Positions 1-18,904 of a stretch of 64,000 nucleotides of DNA are shown here, piece after piece. Source of the DNA: a virus; IMG/VR virus record IMGVR_UViG_3300036980_001087, positions 1 to 64,000 of that record. The stretch is one strand, 5' to 3'. The position numbers were made by a program, and so were the translations under genes. Below the pieces are notes generated by a model. That model did not search any database. It was not told the origin of the DNA and saw only the letters and a list, made by a program, of their open reading frames with translations. Positions within the stretch are counted from its first letter, which is position 1. Each line of letters starts with the position of its first letter.

Positions 1-2
1 AT

Positions 3-467
3 TTCTTTAAAACTTGGGCATCTTCTACTGGAAAATATCATCCTGCCTGTACTTGTGTAGATGGTGGACTTGTAAGGCATGTCCGTAGAGCAACATATAT
101 TGCCAATCGTTTATGTGAAGGTTGGGGTTTATTTGATTTAAGTAGAGATATAGTTTTGGCTGCTATTATTATCCACGATATAGCCAAAGTGCCTTCCGGA
201 GGTAATTACGCTGAATACGAAAATCATCCTATACATGCTCAAAAATATTTTGCAGTGATGGAAGTTAGTGATTCTTTTCCTGTGGAGAAGGCTTTTCCTG
301 TGCAAACTGGAATTACAAATGCTGTAATTCACCACATGGGGAGGTGGACTCCAAAGAGTGTAGCCAAGCCTATTGAATCCTATACATTAACAGAATTAGC
401 AGTTTATACTGCTGACTATATGGCAACCACTAAAGACCTCGTTACTCCGGAGGATGCACTTGAATAA
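3..467 (+). CDS. HD-domain phosphohydrolase (5' truncated by window edge)
   Basis: Frame is open from position 3: ASSTGKYHP...GGLVRH...IIHDIAK...IHHMG...ADY, the H...HD...D pattern of HD hydrolases. Confidence 0.8.
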   Translation, partial: FFKTWASSTGKYHPACTCVDGGLVRHVRRATYIANRLCEGWGLFDLSRDIVLAAIIIHDIAKVPSGGNYAEYENHPIHAQKYFAVMEVSDSFPVEKAFPVQTGITNAVIHHMGRWTPKSVAKPIESYTLTELAVYTADYMATTKDLVTPEDALE

Positions 468-1137
468 ACAGGAGTTAGAGAAAAGAATCCGAGCGTTAGA
501 TCCATGGTTTGAGTATATTCAATTTCCTTTTGGGTTGGAATCAAGGCCCTGTCAAGATATTAAGCATGAAGTTTATAATCATCCTTTATCTTTAGCTACT
601 AGAGTGGAAAAATTATTACCATCTAATAGTGTAAAAGATAAAATGATTTTAGATATGGGGTGTAATGGGGGTTACTTCACATATCTTTATGCAAAGAATG
701 GTGCAATCGTAGACGCAATGGATTTAAATCCTAGATATGTGGAGCAAACCAAATTAATAAGAGATGTATTTGGAGGAGAATTTACAAGACCGGTAACTGT
801 TTCACAAGCAAATATAGAGTCTTTAGAAATAGCCTCAGAAACTTATGATGTAAGTTTGGGCTTGGGGCTTTTATATCATGTGACTAATCCTGTTCTTGCA
901 CTATATAATTTTTATAAAGTAACTAAGACCGGAGGACTTTGTATTTTAGAGTCCAATTGCTCAACAAAAATACCAGAGGGCACAGTGGAGTTTATGGGTA
1001 ATATTAAACCTTATAGTGCTATTTGGCGCTTCTCTCCCCAATCATTAAGGGATATGCTGGAGCATGTTGGATTTACTATAGAAGAAAGCATCACTTTTGC
1101 AGATGATTCTCGTATACTACTAATGGCCATTAAATGA
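454..1137 (+). CDS. Class I SAM-dependent methyltransferase, CmoB/DUF1698-like
   Basis: ILDMGCNGGYF motif I, D at the end of beta2, GLLYH motif and GGLCILE, as in CmoB-like proteins. Confidence 0.75.
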   Translation: MHLNKQELEKRIRALDPWFEYIQFPFGLESRPCQDIKHEVYNHPLSLATRVEKLLPSNSVKDKMILDMGCNGGYFTYLYAKNGAIVDAMDLNPRYVEQTKLIRDVFGGEFTRPVTVSQANIESLEIASETYDVSLGLGLLYHVTNPVLALYNFYKVTKTGGLCILESNCSTKIPEGTVEFMGNIKPYSAIWRFSPQSLRDMLEHVGFTIEESITFADDSRILLMAIK

Positions 1138-1397: not shown

Positions 1398-1939
1398 TGT
1401 ATTATGGTTATATTTATAAAACAGTAAACAAAATTAATAATAAATTGTATATTGGAAAATTAAAAGGTTACTTTAATATAAGTTATAAAGGAAGCGGAAT
1501 AATTTTAAAACGAGCAATTAAAAAGTATGGGGCTATTAACTTTACTGTTAGGCCAATTGCCTATGCTAAAAATAAGCAGGAATTAAATAAATTAGAGTGT
1601 AAATATATCAAGGACTATAGGTTAAAATTTGGTTTACAGAAAATGTATAATATTGCGGATGGAGGACAGGGTGGGGCCTTATTTACTGGACACCACCACT
1701 CAAGGGATACCAAAAGCCGCCTTAGGTTTGCACGTCTAGGTAAAAAGCACACAAAAGAAACAATTATGAAACTTAGTAGGTCTCGTCCACATTCTAAATC
1801 TTGCTTATGTCCATTTTGTAAAAATAAATGTGGACTTGGGGTAGGAACATTCGGATTTAAAGGAAGAGTACACTCATTAAAGACTAAACGTGCTATGTCG
1901 AAAGCTAGAACTTTATATTACATAGAGAGGAATAGATAA
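1397..1939 (+). CDS. GIY-YIG homing endonuclease with NUMOD3 repeats
   Basis: GYIY...LYIG, YKGSG, conserved E and YN; GHHHSRDTK, GKKHTKETI and GRVHSLKTK NUMOD3-type motifs. Confidence 0.9.
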   Translation: MYYGYIYKTVNKINNKLYIGKLKGYFNISYKGSGIILKRAIKKYGAINFTVRPIAYAKNKQELNKLECKYIKDYRLKFGLQKMYNIADGGQGGALFTGHHHSRDTKSRLRFARLGKKHTKETIMKLSRSRPHSKSCLCPFCKNKCGLGVGTFGFKGRVHSLKTKRAMSKARTLYYIERNR

Positions 1940-4269
1940 TGCTATTACATTGTGAGGACTGCGCATTAAAGAAAATAGGTTGTGTTGGGGGAGAGGGGAA
2001 AGTACCCACAGAAATAATGGTGGTGTGTGATAAGCCGAGCCTTGAAGATATTAATAATGGTAGGGCCTTTAGTGGAAAACTTAATGAACAAATTGAGTCT
2101 TTCTTGACTTTAGCCAATATACCAACTAGTATAGTTTATAAAACTAATATTGTTAAGGGCTATGTTAAGCCTAAATTAAATGTAAGCATTGTTTCTATAC
2201 GTAAGTGTTTCCCTTATCTTGAGAAAGAAATAGCTACTGTGGCTCCAAAAGTTATAATGTTAATGGGAGCCACTGCATATAAAGGTTTTAAAGGTAGAGC
2301 AGATGTGGGCACCTGTTACTATGATGAGCAGTATAAGGCCTGGATCCTTTATAGTTTACATCCAATGAAGCCGCTATATTCAGGCCAAGAGTCTGATTAT
2401 ACTACACTAATGAATCATTTTAAAAAAGCAAAAGAATTAATTTCTACTGTTGCTTCTTCCGGATTAGCAAGACCCCCAGTAACCATTATTAAAACAACTG
2501 AAGAGCTCATAAATTTAATTCCTACTCTCTCACAATATGAAGAGTATGGGCTTGACTGCGAAACTATGGGCTTAAATATCCCAAAAGATAAAACACTTAC
2601 ACTTGGCTTAGCCAATGATAAAATTACAGTAGGCATTATTTTAAATAAGGATATGCTACCAATAATTAATGTCCTCTTCACCACTGCCTCTATTATTGGG
2701 CATAATCTTAAATTTGACCTTCAGGCCCTTAGAGGTTATGGGCTCATTGCAACCAAGATTTCTGGGGACACTATGTTGGAGCACTATGTTTTAGATCCTT
2801 TAGCTCCTAGCCATGAATTAGTTAGTTTATGTCTCAAAGAATTGCAGACCTCATTTGATAAAAATCTAGATTACGCCACCTTATTTAATAATGGAATAAC
2901 CCAAGAAATCCTAGAGACATTAGCTGAGCGTGGTGCATTAGATGCTTATTTATCCTATAAATTACATCAGAAATATATGCCCAGAATAAAGGCTGATCCC
3001 GCAGCTATTGACTTTTTTGAAAAAACAGTAATGCCTATTTGTTCATTGCTTGCTGAAATTGAATTTAATGGAGTGATGATTAATCAGGAGGAGCTATTTG
3101 CAACCGAGACTACGATTAATTATCAATTAAAGAGCAAAGAGGCGGAGCTTCTAACTGATCCTATTATTAAAGAGTTTGAGCATAAAGAGGGCATAGAGGC
3201 TATAAATTTTGGTTCACCTAAACAAATGAGCAATCTTATTTATAAATATCTTAAGTTTCCTGTGGATAAAGAAAAAGGAAAAACTACCAAGAAAGAGGTA
3301 ATTGAAAAATTAAATGAACAAGTTAAGCACCCCTTAATTACTAAGCTTTTAGAGTACAGAAATATGGCTAAACTAAGGGATACTTATATAGATGGAATTA
3401 AAGATGGGCTATCAAGATCAGATGATGGTAGATTGCATGTAGACTTTAGTCAGATTAATGTAATTACTGGAAGGCTTTCTTGTTCTAAGCCCAATCTGCA
3501 GACTATACCTAAGGCCGTAGAGAACGCCTCTATTATCCGTAAAATGTTTGGAGCAAGGCCAGGGTATTCTTTAGTTGAAATGGACTTTAAGCAACTTGAG
3601 GTACGTATATGGGCACACCTTTCTAAAGATGCCGCACTTCTTAATATGTTACAGGAAGATGGGGACATACATAGAAAGATTGCGTCTAAAGTAAAGGGCA
3701 TTCCGGAAGATCAAATTACAGATGAGCAACGTTATCAGGCCAAAGAAATTGTATTCGGGCTTATCTATGGCATGGGGGTTAAGGCGTTGGCAGAACGTAC
3801 AGGAATAACAATAGAAGAGGCCACGTTTATTAAGAATGAATTTTTTACCACTTTTCCTGAAGCTACCATTTGGATTAAACAAGTTCAGGATTTTGGACTT
3901 AAATATCAATATGTTTTAACCCCATTTAATAGACGTATTCCGATAATTTATAATCCTAATGACAAAGAGGCCATCTCTTCTGCACAAAGACATGCAGTAA
4001 ATTATCCAATCCAAAGTACTGGAGGAGAATTAACAAATGTTACTGGAGTATATTTATTAGACATAATTAATAAGGCTGGAATCGATGCTAAGATAATTCT
4101 TAATGTACATGACTCTTTAATCTGGGAAATTAAAGATGAGGAAATTTCAAAATTTAAACCTGTGGCACTTGAGGCCATTAAAAAGACCAGTGATAGAATA
4201 AACTTTAGGGCCTTTTTACGGGCTAGCTTTAAAGTGGGTAAGAATTTAGGGGAACAAAAAGATCTTTAA
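1939..4269 (+). CDS. polA: Family A DNA polymerase with N-terminal family-4 uracil-DNA-glycosylase-like domain and 3'-5' exonuclease
   Basis: Exo DCET, HNLKFD and LDA; motif A MDFKQLEVR; motif B RYQAKEIVFGLIYG; motif C VHDS; N-terminal CxxC...GRAFSG...TNIVK...LHP. Confidence 0.95.
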   Translation: MLLHCEDCALKKIGCVGGEGKVPTEIMVVCDKPSLEDINNGRAFSGKLNEQIESFLTLANIPTSIVYKTNIVKGYVKPKLNVSIVSIRKCFPYLEKEIATVAPKVIMLMGATAYKGFKGRADVGTCYYDEQYKAWILYSLHPMKPLYSGQESDYTTLMNHFKKAKELISTVASSGLARPPVTIIKTTEELINLIPTLSQYEEYGLDCETMGLNIPKDKTLTLGLANDKITVGIILNKDMLPIINVLFTTASIIGHNLKFDLQALRGYGLIATKISGDTMLEHYVLDPLAPSHELVSLCLKELQTSFDKNLDYATLFNNGITQEILETLAERGALDAYLSYKLHQKYMPRIKADPAAIDFFEKTVMPICSLLAEIEFNGVMINQEELFATETTINYQLKSKEAELLTDPIIKEFEHKEGIEAINFGSPKQMSNLIYKYLKFPVDKEKGKTTKKEVIEKLNEQVKHPLITKLLEYRNMAKLRDTYIDGIKDGLSRSDDGRLHVDFSQINVITGRLSCSKPNLQTIPKAVENASIIRKMFGARPGYSLVEMDFKQLEVRIWAHLSKDAALLNMLQEDGDIHRKIASKVKGIPEDQITDEQRYQAKEIVFGLIYGMGVKALAERTGITIEEATFIKNEFFTTFPEATIWIKQVQDFGLKYQYVLTPFNRRIPIIYNPNDKEAISSAQRHAVNYPIQSTGGELTNVTGVYLLDIINKAGIDAKIILNVHDSLIWEIKDEEISKFKPVALEAIKKTSDRINFRAFLRASFKVGKNLGEQKDL

Positions 4270-10110: not shown

Positions 10111-11618
10111 TGAAATTTAAATCGTTACATCTTGAGGGGTTCCAGTCCTATGATAAGGCGGATATCCTTTTTACCGACTTCAAGATCACCTTTATTACCG
10201 GACTAAACCAAGATACTGGAAGTAGTAATGGTGCTGGAAAAAGTGGAATAAAAGAGGCCTTATTCTATTTATTATTTGGAAGATCTAAGGTTAAAGGTCC
10301 AGATTTGATTAGACGTGGACAAAAAGTACTTAAGGTCTCTGGACAAATTGAGCACAATTCCTATGTACTTGATATTACCAGAACACGAAAAGCCCAAACT
10401 GCTACTTTAGAACTAGTAATTAATGGAGTACCAAGTATAGGGACAGCCTCCGAGTTACAAACTAAAATTGAACAGTTACTTGGTATTGATATTGATTCCT
10501 TTACTACCTATTCCGTAATTGATAAGGTGAGGCAAACAGACTTAACTCAATTATCTTCTACGGATTTACGAATGGTACTCCAAGACTTATTAGGGTTAAA
10601 TAAGTTACAGGATGTTTTATCTTCCTTAAATGCACATAAAAATGATCTTGAGAAGTACCTCTTACGGGCACATACTAGATTCTACCCTTCAGAGAAAAGG
10701 CTCAATGCATTAAAAGATTACCAAACATTATTACAGGAAAAACGAGATGGGTTTGGTACAAAAGTACTTGATGCTTCTAGTCAAAAGAATGCATTACAGC
10801 ATGATATTGAAGCATTAGAATTAAAAAATAGAGAGTTGACATGTGATAAAAATAATTTATTAAAAGTTGCAGAATGCCCAACATGTGGTGCACCTATTTC
10901 CATAGATAAGCGTATGGCAAAATTAAATATTGTTGAGGCAGAGATTGCAGGTAATCAGGGCACTATAGAAAAATTGAAAGGGGACATTACTCCTCTTACA
11001 TCAAAAATTACAGAGTATTTAAATATAAATACTAATCTTGGAGTACGGATTACGAGGTGTATAACTAGAATTGCCCAACTAACAGAAAGCATGAAAGAGC
11101 AACAAGATATTAATGTAGTTAAAGTAGAGCAAGAAACTTATGTTACGGCCCTAATTGTGCTTCAAAATTATATTACGTCTGTATTAGCAGATGTGGCTTT
11201 GAAGATTGAGGACCAGATGAACCTAGAACTTTCTAGATTTAGTGATCTATTTTGTAAGATTAATCTTTCTAAGACCAAACTTGATGGGCAAATAATACCA
11301 AACTGCTCTATTACTTTATATCGGGATCAATATGAATATACTTTTGATATGCTTTCTTCGGGTGAGCAGGCCTTAGTTTCTCTGATATTTAAACTTGTGA
11401 TAAGTAACCTTCGTGGTAATGTATCTATGTTGTTTGTAGATGAGGGCCTAGACGCATTAGATGAGGTGAATAGGGAACGCATTTTATCCCTATTAGAGAT
11501 TAGCCCCTATACTCAGATATTTATCATTAGCCATAGAGAAGATTCAAATCATATTAAAGCAGGGCAGAAGATACTATTAAGAAAGACTGATGGAATTACA
11601 CAAGTAATAAGCATATAA
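10110..11618 (+). CDS. sbcC: SbcC/Rad50-like ATPase
   Basis: Walker A NGAGKS, coiled coil with CPTC zinc hook, LSSGE signature, FVDE, ISH. Confidence 0.92.
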   Translation: MKFKSLHLEGFQSYDKADILFTDFKITFITGLNQDTGSSNGAGKSGIKEALFYLLFGRSKVKGPDLIRRGQKVLKVSGQIEHNSYVLDITRTRKAQTATLELVINGVPSIGTASELQTKIEQLLGIDIDSFTTYSVIDKVRQTDLTQLSSTDLRMVLQDLLGLNKLQDVLSSLNAHKNDLEKYLLRAHTRFYPSEKRLNALKDYQTLLQEKRDGFGTKVLDASSQKNALQHDIEALELKNRELTCDKNNLLKVAECPTCGAPISIDKRMAKLNIVEAEIAGNQGTIEKLKGDITPLTSKITEYLNINTNLGVRITRCITRIAQLTESMKEQQDINVVKVEQETYVTALIVLQNYITSVLADVALKIEDQMNLELSRFSDLFCKINLSKTKLDGQIIPNCSITLYRDQYEYTFDMLSSGEQALVSLIFKLVISNLRGNVSMLFVDEGLDALDEVNRERILSLLEISPYTQIFIISHREDSNHIKAGQKILLRKTDGITQVISI

Positions 11619-12295
11619 TGAATAAAAATAAAGTAATCCCTAATTATCGGAAACTAGTCTATAAATTAAGATGGAGCCCGGAGCTTGAAGTTGAATTTCC
11701 AGCTAAAACGGATATTGATAAATTACATAGTCGGTATGATAAATTTTTAGGAGATTGGAAAGTTACAACTGATGGTAGCTTAGACAATGGGCTTGAATTT
11801 AAACCAAAAGACTCCCATAAACTTTATTTTAAAGACGAAACATTTGAGGAGATAAGGGAAATCTTACATTTAATTAAGGGGCATAAAGGTAAAGTCACTA
11901 AAACCTGTGGCCTACATATACATGTAGATATGTCCTCATTAAATGATGCCCAGGTGGCAATGATCGTGAGGGAGTTTATACATAAGCAAACATTTATAAT
12001 TAAAAAATTTAAAGTAAGAAAAGAACGACTTGAAGATATGTGTAAATTATTGCCACGTAATGGCTTATCTAAAATAACGCCTAAAACTATAAATTTAATT
12101 AGAACTACTGACTCTTGGTCATTGCCTTCCTATCCGTCCTTCCAGGATAAGCACCATGCTTTAAATATTCTAAATCTTCGGAATTATGGCACACTAGAAT
12201 TTAGATTATTTGAGCCCACTACGGATGTTAGAGAAATTAAAAAAATAATAAAATGGCTATTTGAGTTTCTAATAGACAGTTTGGAGCGGGAATAA
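11618..12295 (+). CDS. Putative amidoligase (COOH-NH2 ligase type 2)
   Basis: ELEVE, DGSL, LEF, CGLHIHV, TLEFRLF. Confidence 0.85.
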   Translation: MNKNKVIPNYRKLVYKLRWSPELEVEFPAKTDIDKLHSRYDKFLGDWKVTTDGSLDNGLEFKPKDSHKLYFKDETFEEIREILHLIKGHKGKVTKTCGLHIHVDMSSLNDAQVAMIVREFIHKQTFIIKKFKVRKERLEDMCKLLPRNGLSKITPKTINLIRTTDSWSLPSYPSFQDKHHALNILNLRNYGTLEFRLFEPTTDVREIKKIIKWLFEFLIDSLERE

Positions 12296-13983: not shown

Positions 13984-13996
13984 GGTATATAATATA
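13984..13996 (+). promoter_or_regulatory. GGTATATAATATA motif, copy 3
   Basis: Exact intergenic repeat, followed by GGAGG. Confidence 0.65.
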
Positions 13997-14010
13997 TAGT
14001 GGAGGATGAA

Positions 14011-14349
14011 ATGAAATGTGAATTAGTTAAAGCAAATACAGGATATAATGGCCTTTCAATCTCAGAAGAGGCCTGTAAATTAGCAGTTGAGAAGTTTACT
14101 GCCCCAGTTCCTATTTATTTTGCTGGAACTAAATTAGTGATGGGCCATATAACTTCAGTAGAATATAACGCTGAAACAAAATCTATTTTTGGAGAAGTTG
14201 ATTTAGAGGTAGTAGTAATGGCTGGTGTTGAAGGTACCCAGTCATTAGATTGCCCTGATGGTAAATTAATCGTAGCAGGAGAAATTAAACAAGGAGTCTT
14301 AGCACCTAAGTCTATAATGCCAGGAGGAAAAGATGGAATGGCCAAATAA
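14011..14349 (+). CDS. Hypothetical protein
   Basis: GGAGG SD before ATG 14011. Confidence 0.55.
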   Translation: MKCELVKANTGYNGLSISEEACKLAVEKFTAPVPIYFAGTKLVMGHITSVEYNAETKSIFGEVDLEVVVMAGVEGTQSLDCPDGKLIVAGEIKQGVLAPKSIMPGGKDGMAK

Positions 14350-15493
14350 AGAAACTGATATCCTTAAAAAATTACTTGAAGATGGAAAGACCTTAGCTGA
14401 ATGTGCCGAGATCATGGGACGTTCCTATAATAGTATTGAACACAAGGCGCGTGTATTGAAATTTACCCGGCCTAAGGAAGACACCAAGGAAACTAAGCCT
14501 TTGGACTTTTCTGATGGTAAGTTAAAACCAGCACAGAAGCAAGAGCTTTTAGAGACATTCTCTCCTGTAATTATAGATACCCTTAAAACAAATATCTTTA
14601 CTAAAAGGCCATATATTCAATTAAAACATGGCCTATATGAAGAAGAGGCAGTATTGGTTTTATCGGATATGCATACAGGAATGATTAATGAGATCTATGA
14701 TCCTAATAGTCAAAGTAAAGTTATAACCTATAATGAAGAAATTAGGCAGAAAGAATTAACGTATTTACGGGACTCTATGTTTGAAATCCAGACTATTCTC
14801 TCTAAATCCTATAATTTACGTAAGCTGCATATCCTAATATTAGGAGACATGATCACTAATGATCGTATATTTGATGGACAAAAATTTGAAATTGATCGTC
14901 CTTATGGCAAACAGGTGTGGGATACGGTAAGAGACCTTACCTATTTTGTAAATCAAATGACTACTCGCTTTCCTAAGGTGCATGTAATTGGCATTGTTGG
15001 AAACCACGGTAGATCAAATGAAAAGTATTCCGAAGAGCCGGTAGAGAATAACTTTGAGTGGACGCTATACAGGATAATGCAAGAGGCCCTAAAGAAGAAC
15101 CCTAATGTAGAAATGGAAGTACCAGATACTCGCTTCTATTCTACCCAGATATTTGGACATCGTTATTATATGCACCATGGAGATAATCTAAGGGGCTTTT
15201 CTAAAACGGCAGTTGAACGGGGAGCAAGAGATTTATTGACCACCTTAATCCCCGATCTTCCTAGTGGTTTTGATGTTTATTTAATGGGACATTTACATTC
15301 TGCGGAGAAGATGGACTTGAATGAGCGATCTACAATGATAGTTAATGGGAGCTTTATCCCTAGAGATCAATATGGGTATAAGATGTTTAGAAGGTACTCT
15401 AAGCCCCAGCAGTGGTTCTTTGGTGTTGGAAAAAGTCGGCCAATAACCTGGTCTTATGCTTTAGACCTTAAAGGAACCGAAAGGACAAAATAA
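14333..15493 (+). CDS. Calcineurin-like metallophosphoesterase with N-terminal HTH
   Basis: SDMH, GDMI, GNHG, HHGD, GHLH; N-terminal KTLAECAEIMGRSYNSI HTH. Confidence 0.85.
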   Translation: MEWPNKETDILKKLLEDGKTLAECAEIMGRSYNSIEHKARVLKFTRPKEDTKETKPLDFSDGKLKPAQKQELLETFSPVIIDTLKTNIFTKRPYIQLKHGLYEEEAVLVLSDMHTGMINEIYDPNSQSKVITYNEEIRQKELTYLRDSMFEIQTILSKSYNLRKLHILILGDMITNDRIFDGQKFEIDRPYGKQVWDTVRDLTYFVNQMTTRFPKVHVIGIVGNHGRSNEKYSEEPVENNFEWTLYRIMQEALKKNPNVEMEVPDTRFYSTQIFGHRYYMHHGDNLRGFSKTAVERGARDLLTTLIPDLPSGFDVYLMGHLHSAEKMDLNERSTMIVNGSFIPRDQYGYKMFRRYSKPQQWFFGVGKSRPITWSYALDLKGTERTK

Positions 15494-16188
15494 TGAATAA
15501 GCAAGAAATAGCACAGGTAATAGATCATACTAACCTTAAGCCTGATTTAAATCGTAAAGGAATTATAACTTTACTTGAAGAGGCTAAGAAGTATAATTTT
15601 AAAGCCGTTTGTGTTACACCTGCTTGGGTATATCTTGCTAAACAAAGACTTGCTGGGACAGGAATTGAAGTATCTACAGTTCCAAATTGGGCTTCCGGGG
15701 GTGGACTCGAGAGAATAAAAGGGGAATATGTTTTTGAAGAGGCGGATGCCATAGATTATATTTGGGATATTTATCAGTTTGGAGTGCTTAAAGCATATGA
15801 TAAAACAGCTAAAGAATTAGAGCAAATAAGACTAAAGACTCGTGGAGAATTAAAAATAATTATTGAGTCCACTGTTATACGTAGTATTGCCGAACATAAA
15901 AAAGAAAATTATGAGGATATAATGAAAGAAGCCTGTAACTTGGTGCAGAATTCGGGGGCCAATTGGATAAAAACAGATAGTGGCTTATTTCTTAGAGATC
16001 CTAAATTTAAGATCCAAAATTTATATGAGGATGTTAAGTTAATGAAGCAAAATTGTACTCTTCCAATTAAAGCTGCGGGAGGAATAGGCACAAAAGAAGA
16101 AGTAGTAACTTTAGTAGCATTAGGCGCATCACGTATTGGAACATCAAGAGGAGTGATGATAGTAGAAAGCATTAAGGAGACGGCATGA
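15493..16188 (+). CDS. deoC: Deoxyribose-phosphate aldolase
   Basis: IDHTNLKP, AVCV, IKTDSG (Schiff-base Lys), IKAAGGI, RIGTS. Confidence 0.9.
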   Translation: MNKQEIAQVIDHTNLKPDLNRKGIITLLEEAKKYNFKAVCVTPAWVYLAKQRLAGTGIEVSTVPNWASGGGLERIKGEYVFEEADAIDYIWDIYQFGVLKAYDKTAKELEQIRLKTRGELKIIIESTVIRSIAEHKKENYEDIMKEACNLVQNSGANWIKTDSGLFLRDPKFKIQNLYEDVKLMKQNCTLPIKAAGGIGTKEEVVTLVALGASRIGTSRGVMIVESIKETA

Positions 16189-16556
16189 TAAATCAAGTAT
16201 TAAGGGACATCTTTGGATTTGCATTAGTACTTACGGGCATACTTGATGCTTGGAAATATGCACTCCAGGCCTCAAAGATCCGTAAAGAGAAAACCGCGGG
16301 AGTATTATCTAGGCAGTTTATTAATTATGCTATCTTAAATGATATAGTTAAATTAGCATATGGCTTTATTATTTGGGATGCGTTTATTATTTCTACCTCA
16401 ATATTAGCACTTATTTGCATGTTATATTTATTTTGGACAGTTTATATTTATTATGATTATGAAACTTATCCTAGGAGATGCTATATTAAGCGGCCTAGAT
16501 TATTTACATATATAGTTAATTCAGTATTACCGAACGCTAAAAGGAAACATCTTTAA
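16185..16556 (+). CDS. PQ-loop/SemiSWEET-like 3-TM membrane protein
   Basis: LQ..KI...K.A..LS...LAYG pattern and three hydrophobic helices. Confidence 0.6.
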   Translation: MINQVLRDIFGFALVLTGILDAWKYALQASKIRKEKTAGVLSRQFINYAILNDIVKLAYGFIIWDAFIISTSILALICMLYLFWTVYIYYDYETYPRRCYIKRPRLFTYIVNSVLPNAKRKHL

Positions 16557-16566
16557 AGGAGCACCT

Positions 16567-17226
16567 ATGACTGATGATAAAGTACAGAAACAGGCCGTTG
16601 AAGAAGTACTTAAAGTGGTTGGAACACCCATTATTACTCCAGAAGCACTTCCTATTCAATTAAATAAGGAATTTAAATATGTTACTTATTTAATTGGAGC
16701 AATGCAGATAACTGCAGAGAAGGATGGGGGTGGAGAAAAGAGAGAAAATTTAGATAAAGAACTTCGTTTAAGAAATATATTTCCCATTAATCCAGTAAAA
16801 TTAGAGGCATCAAAGACGGGAATGTCTTCTGAGGAAATTACTTCAAAGATGAAGGGCTGGGTAGCCTCAGGTTGTTGGGATAAATTTGGGGAACAAGCAA
16901 TAAATATATGGAAGGGACGTGATTATGTTGAAACTACCGGAAACCTTAAACATATACCGGGGGACATTACTTATGTTACGATGTCTACCTGGATTACTTT
17001 TAGGCTTAATTCTGGTGATCAGCCTTGTGGTAGCTATATGGAATGCGGGGTTGCTATGGAACATAACATTCCAATCTATTTAATTACAGATATACCTAAA
17101 AAAGAATTAAAGCAGAGCCTCCTGCAGGCTATTTTGGTTACTCAGGGCGAAGTATTTAGAACTGAGAATGAATATCTAACGTTCATTGATAAAAAATATG
17201 ATTTAAAAAGGAAGAATGAGGCTTAA
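16567..17226 (+). CDS. Nucleoside 2-deoxyribosyltransferase / nucleotide N-glycosidase (NDT/Rcl fold)
   Basis: TYLIGAM, INP, D, GSYMECGVA...NIPIYL (catalytic Tyr and Glu positions). Confidence 0.7.
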   Translation: MTDDKVQKQAVEEVLKVVGTPIITPEALPIQLNKEFKYVTYLIGAMQITAEKDGGGEKRENLDKELRLRNIFPINPVKLEASKTGMSSEEITSKMKGWVASGCWDKFGEQAINIWKGRDYVETTGNLKHIPGDITYVTMSTWITFRLNSGDQPCGSYMECGVAMEHNIPIYLITDIPKKELKQSLLQAILVTQGEVFRTENEYLTFIDKKYDLKRKNEA

Positions 17227-17431
17227 TATCTTCTTTAAATGTAAGACCTGTACTGGAACTGGGTGGGCTGCACCAAGCATACCATGTCAAGTTTGTAAAG
17301 GTTCCGGTCAGGTACTCCATATGTTCCAAGATGTTATTAAAGTAGTAGAATTTCCAGATGGAAATGAATGTGAGGATGCTGTATTAGTTGTAAAAGAGGA
17401 GCCCCATGCACCCGACACTAATAGCAATTAG
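17216..17431 (+). CDS. DnaJ-type zinc-finger protein
   Basis: CKTCTGTG and CQVCKGSG. Confidence 0.7.
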   Translation: MRLNIFFKCKTCTGTGWAAPSIPCQVCKGSGQVLHMFQDVIKVVEFPDGNECEDAVLVVKEEPHAPDTNSN

Positions 17432-17732
17432 TTTATTTTTAGTAGGAATTCTTGAGAATTTTTTAATTTCGATTAATACTGATTTTCGTATTCAAAAAAG
17501 TAGGTGGGGGTGCTTTACTACTTCTTTTGTTATAGCTGTAACTTGGTGTTATATTGTTGGTACTGTTACTGAGAACCTCACAGTACTTTGGTTAATAGTA
17601 ATTTATTCAATAGGTTATGGAGTGGGTGACGTATTAGGTCTTCATTTTAATAAATATTTAGAGAATATAGTTAAGAAGTACAATCTAAAATTACGTAAAT
17701 TTCGTAGACATAAGTTAACAAGGAAGAAATAA
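17406..17732 (+). CDS. 3-TM membrane protein (DUF5698/UPF0316-like)
   Basis: Three hydrophobic helices; YSIGYGVGDVLG. Confidence 0.55.
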   Translation: MHPTLIAISLFLVGILENFLISINTDFRIQKSRWGCFTTSFVIAVTWCYIVGTVTENLTVLWLIVIYSIGYGVGDVLGLHFNKYLENIVKKYNLKLRKFRRHKLTRKK

Positions 17733-17884
17733 TGATAGACCATCCTTTAGTTGGTGGGGGAGATCCCGAATATTCTAAGAATTATGACCGTATATTTCGG
17801 AAGCCCCTAAAAGTTAAACTTATAGACAAATTAAATAGCTGGATTATTAAAATTTTCTTAAATGGTCGGAGGAAAGATGTATAG
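17732..17884 (+). CDS. Small hypothetical protein (50 aa, not in ORF track)
   Basis: TAATG coupling with the upstream gene; YSKNYDRIFRK. Confidence 0.5.
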   Translation: MIDHPLVGGGDPEYSKNYDRIFRKPLKVKLIDKLNSWIIKIFLNGRRKDV

Positions 17885-18209
17885 ATATAATACCTTACGA
17901 GTTGAAGCAGAGATTCCTCTTGAGCCTGGGTCTATTTTTATTCAGGCCGAAATAGTAATGGTAGACTCAAATAGGACTACTTTAAACTGTGAGACTATTA
18001 AATTAATGTTACTAAGGTACCCTAAATTAAAATCAAACACGCTTGAAAATTATGCTAGGCTATTAAGTTTGAAGGTAGCCCGCTATGCTTTTAAAGAGTA
18101 CCCCTATACGTTAACGGTAAAAGTCAAAGCCACTTATAGTGAAGATGGGACAAGTAGTGAAATGGAACTTAGCCAAGAAGATTTAGTAGTTGAACAACTA
18201 GAAAAATAG
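17877..18209 (+). CDS. Hypothetical protein, possible T-fold (QueF/FolB-like)
   Basis: GGAGG SD; beta-beta-alpha-alpha-beta-beta pattern with ETIKLMLLRY...TLENYARLL. Confidence 0.3.
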   Translation: MYRYNTLRVEAEIPLEPGSIFIQAEIVMVDSNRTTLNCETIKLMLLRYPKLKSNTLENYARLLSLKVARYAFKEYPYTLTVKVKATYSEDGTSSEMELSQEDLVVEQLEK

Positions 18210-18217
18210 GAGGATGT

Positions 18218-18439
18218 ATGGAATTAATGGGGATAGCCCGTAATTTAACTACAGCACGGCAATTGATATTTATTGGTTTTAATTTAGGTGTGGGCCTTAC
18301 AGTAGGTTATCTTGTAGTAGCATTTGTTGGCGGGCTTTTAACTTACTTTACTACTCCTAAGGTGAATGCCTCTGATGTGGATGCTTTATTTCAGGAAATG
18401 TTAAAAAAGAAAGAAGAAAAAGAAAATAAGGGAGAATAA
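18218..18439 (+). CDS. Single-pass membrane protein
   Basis: AGGAGG SD; one long hydrophobic helix and a charged tail. Confidence 0.6.
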   Translation: MELMGIARNLTTARQLIFIGFNLGVGLTVGYLVVAFVGGLLTYFTTPKVNASDVDALFQEMLKKKEEKENKGE

Positions 18440-18904
18440 ATGGAAAAAGATAATACCTTAAAAAATACTAATCCTAAAGATGCAATTGGTTGTAACAAAG
18501 TACCATTGCACCTATTTCCAGAAACAGCTACTATCCTTGGTTCTTTGGGCTTATTGGATGGTATGCTTAAGTATGGCCGAGCAAATTGGCGGAGAGCCGG
18601 AATTAGGGCATCAATATATTATGATGCTTGCCGTAGGCATATGAATGCTTGGTTTGAGGGGGAAGACACCGATCCAGACTCAGGCTTACCACATTTAGCT
18701 CACGCTATAGCATGTATAGCTATCATTATTGATGCTAAAGCTGCAGGTAAATTAAATGATGATAGACAAATACCAGGAGGATATCGTAAACTCCTAAATG
18801 AAATGACCAAAGAAGTAGCTAGACTTAAAGAGCTACATAAAGAAAAAGATCCCAAGCATTATACTATAGCAGACAAAGAAGGGGAAAATGACACGAAGAG
18901 TTAA
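18440..18904 (+). CDS. dATP/dGTP diphosphohydrolase-domain protein (DUF5664)
   Basis: NPKDAIG..K.PLHL.P, G.LKYG..NWR, RH...W.EGED.DPDSGL.HLAHA. Confidence 0.88.
   Translation: MEKDNTLKNTNPKDAIGCNKVPLHLFPETATILGSLGLLDGMLKYGRANWRRAGIRASIYYDACRRHMNAWFEGEDTDPDSGLPHLAHAIACIAIIIDAKAAGKLNDDRQIPGGYRKLLNEMTKEVARLKELHKEKDPKHYTIADKEGENDTKS

Follow-up and report, generated by a model that had tools for sequence, protein, structure and literature searches.

A candidate phage-encoded route of deoxynucleotide destruction built from DUF5664, NDT-fold and DeoC enzymes

The virus record IMGVR_UViG_3300036980_001087 of IMG/VR, of which the first 64,000 nucleotides (nt) were analyzed here as one stretch of DNA ("the window"), carries a tightly packed run of genes on its plus strand that includes those for a stand-alone DUF5664 protein, a protein with the fold of nucleoside deoxyribosyltransferases (NDTs) and a deoxyribose-phosphate aldolase (DeoC, also called DERA). 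We consider it probable that these three proteins act one after the other as a phage-encoded route that destroys deoxynucleotides, a reading that draws on sequence, on structure models and on analogy with characterized enzymes. Such a three-step chain had been proposed in an earlier note made from the letters of this DNA alone, and it gains support from the co-occurrence of the genes and, by analogy, from the published activities of counterparts of the DUF5664 and NDT-like proteins (PMC12884076). The three genes are as follows.

15493..16188, plus strand: deoxyribose-phosphate aldolase (DeoC/DERA, a class I aldolase) of 231 amino acids (aa), recognized by TIGR00126 and by comparison with solved DERAs
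16567..17226, plus strand: NDT-fold enzyme of 219 aa, a predicted 2'-deoxynucleotide N-glycosidase releasing deoxyribose-5-phosphate (dR5P), recognized by an AlphaFold2 (AF2) model and its structure matches
18440..18904, plus strand: stand-alone DUF5664 protein of 154 aa, a predicted pyrophosphohydrolase of deoxynucleoside triphosphates (dNTPs) yielding the monophosphate (dNMP) and pyrophosphate (PPi), recognized by PF18909

In the proposed route, the DUF5664 protein would take pyrophosphate off a dNTP to leave the dNMP, and the NDT-fold protein would then cut the glycosidic bond of this 2'-deoxynucleoside 5'-monophosphate to give the free base and dR5P. The cut would probably proceed through a covalent Glu159-deoxyribosyl-5-phosphate intermediate with Asp133 as the acid, and Tyr41 would hold Glu159 and exclude ribo-substrates. 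DeoC would finally split dR5P into glyceraldehyde-3-phosphate (G3P) and acetaldehyde, which would make the loss irreversible and remove toxic dR5P. We infer the substrates of the first two steps in this phage, and the coupling of the three steps in vivo, from gene identities, folds, catalytic residues and a conserved linkage that the analysis establishes. The best argument for a 5'-phosphorylated substrate is the linkage to DeoC, since a nucleoside substrate would yield deoxyribose, which DeoC could not use without a kinase. Accumulation of dR5P is toxic in deoC mutants, which would account for an aldolase accompanying a high-flux dNMP glycosidase, and the steadiness of the pairing with DeoC argues for bulk flux over trace clean-up. 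Such a flux could serve to purge one dNTP species or to burn the dNMPs derived from host DNA.

The assignment of the DUF5664 protein made in the earlier note is borne out by its match to PF18909 (DUF5664/dGTP_diPhyd_N; 2.2e-24, 85.7 bits, cut-off 27). The 154-aa protein also matches phrog_2252 (2.3e-64) and phrog_801, annotated as "dATP/dGTP pyrophosphohydrolase" (1e-22), and contains the conserved core KYG..NWR...RH...GE..D.DSG..H of a family whose alignment holds 34 invariant residues, many of them charged. Over this conserved core it is 42% identical (E 1e-11) to the assayed DUF5664 protein of Arthrobacter phage Wayne, a stand-alone enzyme for which Poubanne et al. (NAR 2026, PMC12884076) showed hydrolysis of dATP, dUTP and dGTP to the monophosphates; dNTP pyrophosphohydrolase activity has been shown for a DUF5664-DUF550 fusion as well (PMC12884076). 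The AF2 model of the window protein is poor (pLDDT 63.4, from 11 sequences) and returned no Foldseek match at E ≤0.001.

The catalytic motifs of DeoC had been described as intact, and this holds under closer comparison. The protein aligns over its full length (residues 1-227) with solved DERAs (1.4e-23), passes the NCBIfam equivalog cut-off for deoC (TIGR00126, 122.6 bits vs 117.3) and scores 29.6 against Pfam PF01791 (cut-off 23.8). D88, K121, K160, K193, G197, G216 and S218 do not vary among 27 sequences of phage and cellular origin, the phosphate-binding Gly/Ser motifs being kept as well, and K160 (IKTDSG, the Schiff-base Lys), K193 (IKAAGG) and D88 (AIDYI) align with their counterparts in solved DERAs; in the Escherichia coli enzyme the Schiff base forms on K167, with K201 and D102 as the proton relay. 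About two dozen metagenomic proteins with 43-97% identity to the query form a clade with this DeoC, to which cellular DERAs show at most 38% identity, and the clade has its own motifs, VPNW..GGG and KTDSGLF.R, plus insertions. We take the window protein to be a genuine DERA of a phage-restricted clade, in which the clade-specific loop changes would leave some room for altered specificity. The remark that DeoC is an unusual phage gene stands for cultured phages, where only 16 of 50,697 records have a match (all at ≤41% identity, all in unannotated records), and falls for uncultured viral contigs, where we count at least 69 loci.

The second step of the route depends on the 219-aa protein, which has no match in Pfam, PHROG or NCBIfam and does not reach the gathering score of PF05014. 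Its family comprises 53 metagenomic homologues, and 17 of the 37 that were aligned have sub-threshold PF05014 matches (best E 1.4e-6). The AF2 model built on the homologue alignment (pLDDT 84.7) retrieves YtoQ, BcmB/MilB, DNPH1 and nucleoside deoxyribosyltransferases with Foldseek at probability 1.00, and VIA-align superimposes residues 35-213 on NDTs, DNPH1, MilB, BcmB and YtoQ with Z 11-15 and a root-mean-square deviation of 2.5-3.3 Å over 120-142 residues. The NDT fold named in the earlier note is backed by these superpositions, which for NDTs, DNPH1, MilB and also YtoQ reach Z 12-15. In the family alignment, E159 and D133 are invariant, Y41 is conserved in at least 90% and Pro153 is nearly invariant. 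Mapped onto the Lactobacillus leichmannii NDT (1F8X) through a weak phmmer alignment of one family member (P0048), E159 falls on the nucleophile Glu98, D133 on Asp72 and Pro153 on the 5'-OH-binding Asp92, so that the Asp with which NDTs bind the nucleoside 5'-OH is absent (Asp92 to Pro153), as expected of a DNPH1-type enzyme. By alignment ranges only, Y41 stands at the position of Tyr7 in the L. leichmannii enzyme (LlNDT), Tyr13 in rat Rcl and Tyr24 in human DNPH1. At the equivalent position in MilB, the substitution F17Y shifts the preference from CMP to dCMP (PMC4081090, PMC10603095), an effect that, together with the conservation of Tyr41, argues for 2'-deoxy substrates.

Gene context, with DeoC and a dNTP pyrophosphatase close by, points to nucleotides and not nucleosides as substrates. 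Candidate residues for binding the 5'-phosphate are R59 and R69, invariant throughout the family, and K83, which is almost so; these could take this role. The family also has a Gly at Glu-4, where the model of DmtZ puts the phosphate-contacting Gly99; DmtZ, from phages Wayne and Ghobes, is an NDT-like enzyme with a Tyr/Asn/Glu triad that converts dAMP to adenine and dR5P and is able to pass dR5P to 2-aminoadenine, and together with DUF5664 it serves PurZ0-type Z genomes (PMC12884076). By modeled fold and triad, we file the 219-aa protein in the NDT superfamily, and not in PF05014, DNPH1 or DmtZ; it would be a new branch of this superfamily with a non-canonical substrate pocket.

Inteins favor conserved active-site motifs, and two of the three enzymes have homologues that carry one. 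In the closest relative of the window phage (IMGVR_UViG_3300036985_004568, L002:5944-7533), the NDT-like gene encodes 529 aa and holds a LAGLIDADG intein (Cys1 ... His-Asn, Cys+1), which separates Pro153 from Cys154, with the catalytic Glu five residues further on; in all, six clusters of the NDT-like family, P0175-P0179 among them, bear an intein, at 50-87% identity. The DeoC gene of another relative (L043:9132-10838) is a 568-aa open reading frame (ORF) whose Schiff-base Lys motif has an Intein_splicing domain inserted nearby, and DeoC is unusual as an intein host. The presence of inteins in the catalytic motifs of an NDT homologue and of DeoC fits enzymes that are conserved, functionally important and under selection. 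A search for longer NDT-like forms returned intein-bearing versions only, with no fusion to DUF5664, DeoC or Dut.

A lack of co-occurrence in relatives had been named in the earlier note among the findings that would refute the proposal, and the genes do co-occur. Scanning IMG/VR with a profile of the NDT-like family gave 36 loci (34-87% identity), and PF18909 matches in 29 of the 36 NDT-bearing records and in all nine of those that are complete. With the coordinates combined, every PF18909 match, sub-threshold ones included, is on the strand of the NDT-like gene and no more than ~2 kb downstream of it; a local profile hidden Markov model (HMM) placed DUF5664 0-1.2 kb downstream in 22 of 35 loci. 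A DeoC-like gene is also found in 10 of the 36 records. Starting from the phage DeoC clade, 21 further records were obtained, of which 11 have an NDT-like gene and 8 a DUF5664 gene. Among 17 relatives selected by TerL alone, 7 have the NDT-like gene, 11 DUF5664 and 9 DeoC; five have all three and four have none. One relative without a PF18909 match has a 123-aa protein (L045:11569-11940) two genes downstream of the NDT-like gene, at the place expected of DUF5664. Its weak match to DUF1599 ("nucleotide modification associated domain 1"), in the absence of BLAST similarity, does not establish it as a DUF5664 equivalent.

Beyond this lineage, a broader DeoC scan collected at least 69 loci from viral contigs between 5.7 and 476 kb in length, with DeoC proteins mostly 22-32% identical to that of the window. 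In at least 24 of these 69 loci, on contigs of 25-175 kb, DeoC is followed on its own strand by an NDT-like ORF whose start coincides with the end of DeoC or comes shortly after it. This count was made with the original family profile (A1-only HMM; E 1e-5 to 1e-12, bar two far better-scoring loci of the lineage of the window phage) and rises to at least 28 with an iterated profile, which in a control matched only the expected gene in the genome of the window phage and, weakly, DmtZ of Wayne. The NDT-like ORFs that follow DeoC keep the motifs YL.G.M, DGG.GWR and CG[ST]Y.E. Elsewhere in the genome, 17 of 26 DeoC-NDT records (6 of the 7 complete ones) carry PF18909 above cut-off; for comparison, tblastn with the window DUF5664 protein hits 403 of the 50,697 records of cultured phages. 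PurZ was found in none of the 26. Taken together, DeoC and NDT form an operon that is conserved in unrelated phages, NDT and DUF5664 form a conserved pair within the lineage of the window phage, and the trio recurs in both. A literature search found no publication that joins phage DeoC with an NDT-like enzyme.

Several observations weigh against the proposed route. The top structural matches of the 219-aa protein are nucleoside transferases (Z 13.6-14.9), with DNPH1 a small gap behind (Z 12.7). The Ser that coordinates the phosphate at Glu-6 in DNPH1 (S98) and MilB (S97; PMC10603095) is replaced by Pro153 in the NDT-like family, so that we infer a 5'-phosphate pocket rather than see one; if present, it would be of another kind. 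Sequence and profile searches of the PDB with the family gave no significant match to a solved NDT or DNPH1, and hhalign against DmtZ gave a probability of 1.7% (E 0.029), around the Glu motif only. As for the linkage, the complete genome G058 has DeoC and DUF5664 with no detectable NDT-like gene, so the trio is not always together, and in other lineages the distance between DUF5664 and the DeoC-NDT pair amounts to tens of kb. Distant members of the lineage (TerL 44-46% identical) share the backbone order SbcD-SbcC-phosphoesterase-DeoC-NDT-...-DUF5664-g138-terS-TerL, which means that part of the adjacency was inherited and not independently selected. Finally, a 735-kb megaphage (L147, LR756501.1:332733-343392) has a DeoC-family gene amid glycosyltransferases and methyltransferases. 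We considered it as an independent case and set it aside, because without an NDT-like neighbor it is uninformative on the module.

Since its best structural matches are transferases and its catalytic triad is common to transferases and hydrolases, the NDT-fold protein might act mainly as a transferase that moves deoxyribose-5-phosphate (or deoxyribose) onto an unusual base, thereby making a non-canonical dNMP for phage DNA. DUF5664 would then supply the canonical dNMP donor, and DeoC would only mop up the dR5P lost by hydrolysis. DmtZ sets a precedent, as a single fold that is both hydrolase and transferase and that acts alongside DUF5664 or DutZ (PMC12884076). We nevertheless judge a transferase to be quite unlikely. 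The conserved operon includes an aldolase that would destroy the very group to be transferred, which fits catabolism better, and no gene for an unusual base was found: the whole 96.9-kb record has no match to PF00709 (PurZ), PF00692 (dUTPase), PF01702 (TGT/DpdA) or PF00303 (ThyA), and PurZ is likewise missing from all 26 other DeoC-NDT records. Pfam scans of ~70 proteins, which leave small ORFs and unknown families outside their scope, revealed no known base-replacement enzyme; they returned replication, recombination, protease, methyltransferase, glycosyltransferase and transporter genes. The earlier note, in which a modified base was one suggested purpose of the module, had proposed a check of purZ, dpdA and thymidine-modifying genes, and neither PurZ, TGT/DpdA nor a ThyA-like enzyme is present. 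A variant of this idea, namely that the trio marks phages of several lineages that, without PurZ, purge one canonical deoxynucleotide because their DNA holds a replacement base from an unknown route, strikes us as rather unlikely; if it were true, the trio would be a genomic flag for undiscovered DNA chemistries.

The non-canonical phosphate pocket also bears on which compound is cleaved. The substrate might be non-standard, such as a nucleotide made by a defense system (dITP/dIMP, chain terminators of the ddhNTP type, deoxynucleotide signals), a ribonucleotide or a derivative of NAD or ADP-ribose, and the module would then be a counter-defense or detoxifying device. Among the Rossmannoid folds of the NDT/SLOG/TIR-like kind are enzymes whose substrates are CMP, hmCMP or cytokinin nucleotides, and the phage carries a SLOG-family (YAcAr) protein and an HD phosphohydrolase; a link to the chemistry of defense is speculative. 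The conserved Tyr41 points instead to 2'-deoxy substrates, the fixed partnership with DeoC requires dR5P as the product and suggests bulk flux over the removal of a trace signal, and no defense-related context was seen. We therefore hold such a device to be improbable.

The inherited gene order, in turn, raises the question of whether the three genes are connected by function at all. On this account, DUF5664 would clean house as a dUTPase-like pyrophosphatase, the NDT-fold protein would serve nucleoside salvage and DeoC would be an auxiliary metabolic gene for the catabolism of host deoxyribose. The gene order is that of the lineage backbone, phage genes are always tightly packed, so that coupling alone means little, and presence and absence are only loosely correlated among the 17 TerL relatives. 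Moreover, the genome has no dUTPase, the DUF5664 of Wayne hydrolyses dUTP, and hundreds of phages that lack this NDT family have DUF5664. What makes separate functions unlikely in our view is that the NDT-DUF5664 pair stays adjacent through rearrangements, as in L145, where it has moved as a unit and lies ~12 kb from DeoC, and that DeoC and NDT are paired again in widely differing phages, with DeoC 22-32% identical to the window protein and DUF5664 present in 17 of 26 such genomes. The absence of the nucleoside-binding Asp from the NDT-like family speaks against nucleoside salvage as well. A shared, deoxynucleotide-destroying function of the three enzymes thus remains the reading that we prefer.

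This route can be placed among known systems. Its nearest likeness is to the PurZ0 actinophages, Arthrobacter phage Wayne and Gordonia phage Ghobes, in which DUF5664 or DutZ works with DmtZ: in both cases, a stand-alone DUF5664 protein is paired with an NDT-fold enzyme, and DmtZ and the window protein have a Tyr/(Asp|Asn)/Glu triad in common. The Wayne locus reads PurZ0, DUF5664, a small gene and DmtZ-DutZ, with gp51 and gp53 within ~1 kb. Unlike the DmtZ system, neither the window phage nor the 26 other DeoC-NDT records have PurZ or PurZ0. The window NDT-like protein belongs to a different sequence family, with a helical insertion of ~55 residues and a Pro at Glu-6, and is not fused to Dut as in DmtZ-DutZ; its module has DeoC attached, which has not been described for Z-phages. 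With DNPH1/Rcl and MilB/BcmB, the window protein shares the fold (Z 11.6-12.7), with the Glu nucleophile and the Asp acid in equivalent motifs, and with DNPH1 also the Tyr at the position that selects for 2'-deoxy and the dR5P product, here predicted from the linkage to DeoC. It differs from DNPH1 and MilB in having no detectable sequence similarity to them and in the extra invariant Arg/Lys of its family; in DNPH1, Ser128' of the neighboring subunit contributes to phosphate binding. The class I/II NDTs (PF05014; 1F8X) provide the best structural matches (Z 12-15), in which the catalytic Glu and Asp align, whereas the 5'-OH-binding D92 is absent from the window protein, which also misses the Pfam threshold. 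With the bacterial deo pathway (DeoA/DeoD, DeoB, DeoC), the phage route would share the final DeoC reaction and catabolism to G3P and acetaldehyde, but it would skip the nucleotidase, phosphorylase and mutase and cut the dNMP directly to dR5P. The module thus appears to be a PurZ-independent variant of the DUF5664/DmtZ system, with a different NDT family and extended by DeoC. The logic of a phage dNTP pyrophosphatase combined with an NDT-fold dNMP glycosidase is already published (2026, for Z genomes); new here are the different NDT family with its atypical pocket, the independence from PurZ, the operonic coupling to a phage-specific DERA clade and the wide spread among uncultured phages.

The three genes lie within a run (13999-18904) that is encoded entirely on the plus strand and is so tightly packed that most junctions overlap or leave at most 10 nt. 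The earlier note had reported such a run, with metallophosphoesterase, DeoC, NDT-fold and DUF5664 genes behind a promoter-like motif, and all of these are found as reported. The other features of the run are as follows.

13984..13996, plus strand: promoter-like 13-mer GGTATATAATATA, ahead of the gene run
13999..14349, plus strand: conserved neighbor of the module, 116 aa, no family match
14333..15493, plus strand: metallophosphoesterase of 386 aa with an N-terminal helix-turn-helix (HTH), recognized by phrog_284 and Metallophos
16185..16556, plus strand: protein of 123 aa with three transmembrane segments, PQ-loop/SemiSWEET-like as a lead only, from its atlas score and hydrophobic segments
17216..17431, plus strand: CxxCxGxG zinc-finger protein of 71 aa (DnaJ_CXXCXGXG, 2.7e-5, below cut-off)
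17406..17732, plus strand: membrane protein of 108 aa with DUF5698 (PF18955, 8.4e-8, above cut-off)

The 13-mer occurs exactly three times in the window (4280, 12682 and 13984), always between genes, where ~0.5 copies would be expected and none of 100 shuffles reached three; a consensus scan finds the hexamer TATAAT within it. The 116-aa protein has no Pfam, PHROG or NCBIfam match, and the protein atlas links it to viral hypothetical proteins only; its homologues lie upstream of the phosphoesterase in L010 and directly after the NDT-like gene in L017/L045. The 71-aa CxxCxGxG protein is kept in the closest relative, listed as L010, and the DUF5698 gene adjoins the PQ-loop-like gene in L017/L045 and L054.

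The 386-aa metallophosphoesterase matches phrog_284 ("exonuclease") at 3.6e-46 and, weakly, Pfam Metallophos (6.4e-4), with an HTH repeat match at residues 11-36, and is possibly a nuclease or phosphodiesterase. Its gene is directly upstream of DeoC in all ten loci of this lineage that we examined (the window, L010, L043, L045, L054, L062 and L143-L146), including those in which the NDT-like gene has another position or is missing. This constant adjacency may reflect a functional link or an insertion hot spot. We considered the phosphoesterase as a possible member of the pathway: in this lineage it always precedes DeoC, and yet it is also present, as a backbone gene, in relatives without DeoC. 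The 123-aa protein had been called a PQ-loop transporter in the earlier note. It has three hydrophobic segments and an atlas score of 0.89, with 201 of 256 features in common with viral PF04193/PF03083 (PQ-loop/MtN3) clusters; on the other hand, it has no match in Pfam (PF04193, PF03083), PHROG or NCBIfam, and its "LQ..K..K....G.LS" stretch has "LQ" in place of "PQ", so that the likeness is a lead and not proof. PQ-loop-like homologues occur near the module in L010, L017, L043, L054 and L038. Both the metallophosphoesterase and the PQ-loop-like protein are syntenic with the module and are at most candidate members of the pathway.

The record as a whole (96,942 bp, G+C ~36%) is rated complete by CheckV, and the IMG/VR entry describes it as linear without end repeats. 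Its ends are alike (window 1-823 and record 96120-96942, 92.5% identity over 823 bp), so that the assembly closes on itself; such an imperfect overlap is expected if the genome is circularly permuted or terminally redundant and its assembly drew on a mixed population. The module sits inside a long plus-strand block of replication and accessory genes that closes with an HNH gene, a small-terminase-like gene, TerL and a portal gene. Against 50,697 cultured phage records, neither blastn with the region nor tblastn with the NDT-like protein found a match; TerL is at most 29% identical to that of any cultured phage, which, with the lack of a blastn match, leaves no annotated relative that could be used.

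Several further genes of the record stand out. DNA polymerase I (window 1939-4269) has an N-terminal domain of the uracil-DNA-glycosylase family (PF03167, 8.4e-14) before its 3'-5' exonuclease and polymerase domains. A 190-aa HD-domain phosphohydrolase (window 3-467; full copy at record 96014-96586) follows just after the primase-helicase gene and may be a further nucleotide-pool enzyme; in L045, a homologue (47% identity) comes ~1 kb after the NDT-like gene. On the other side of the primase-helicase gene, immediately upstream, a 123-aa protein of the SLOG family (YAcAr, PF10686, 3.6e-12; record 93504-93875, L004:15504-15875) adds a Rossmannoid domain with a predicted role in the binding or processing of nucleotides. 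Upstream of the module, an Amidoligase_2 gene (PF12224) is found at window 11618-12295, with homologues ~3-8 kb from the NDT-like gene in L008, L009 and L035. A span of unusual phage accessories (record 77654-90173, L003/L004) encodes a RuvB-like ATPase, an ATP-dependent DNA ligase, an M17 leucyl aminopeptidase and a trypsin-like protease, together with an RNA ligase, a peptide deformylase, a BT1/MFS-family transporter, a polysaccharide pyruvyl transferase and several methyltransferases.

Destruction of deoxynucleotide pools in phages by DUF5664 or Dut together with an NDT-fold glycosidase was so far known only in the service of 2-aminoadenine (Z) genomes. That this logic is also found without PurZ, with another NDT family and with a hard-wired aldolase, suggests that the strategy is general. 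If the proposed chain is true, many uncultured phages with genomes from ~90 kb to 175 kb would turn deoxynucleotides into base, G3P and acetaldehyde, possibly for base exclusion, for the rebalancing of pools, for the harvest of carbon and energy from host DNA or for countering nucleotide-based immunity. The three enzymes are small and soluble and lend themselves to a simple coupled assay, and DERA, a workhorse of biocatalysis, has a divergent phage clade.

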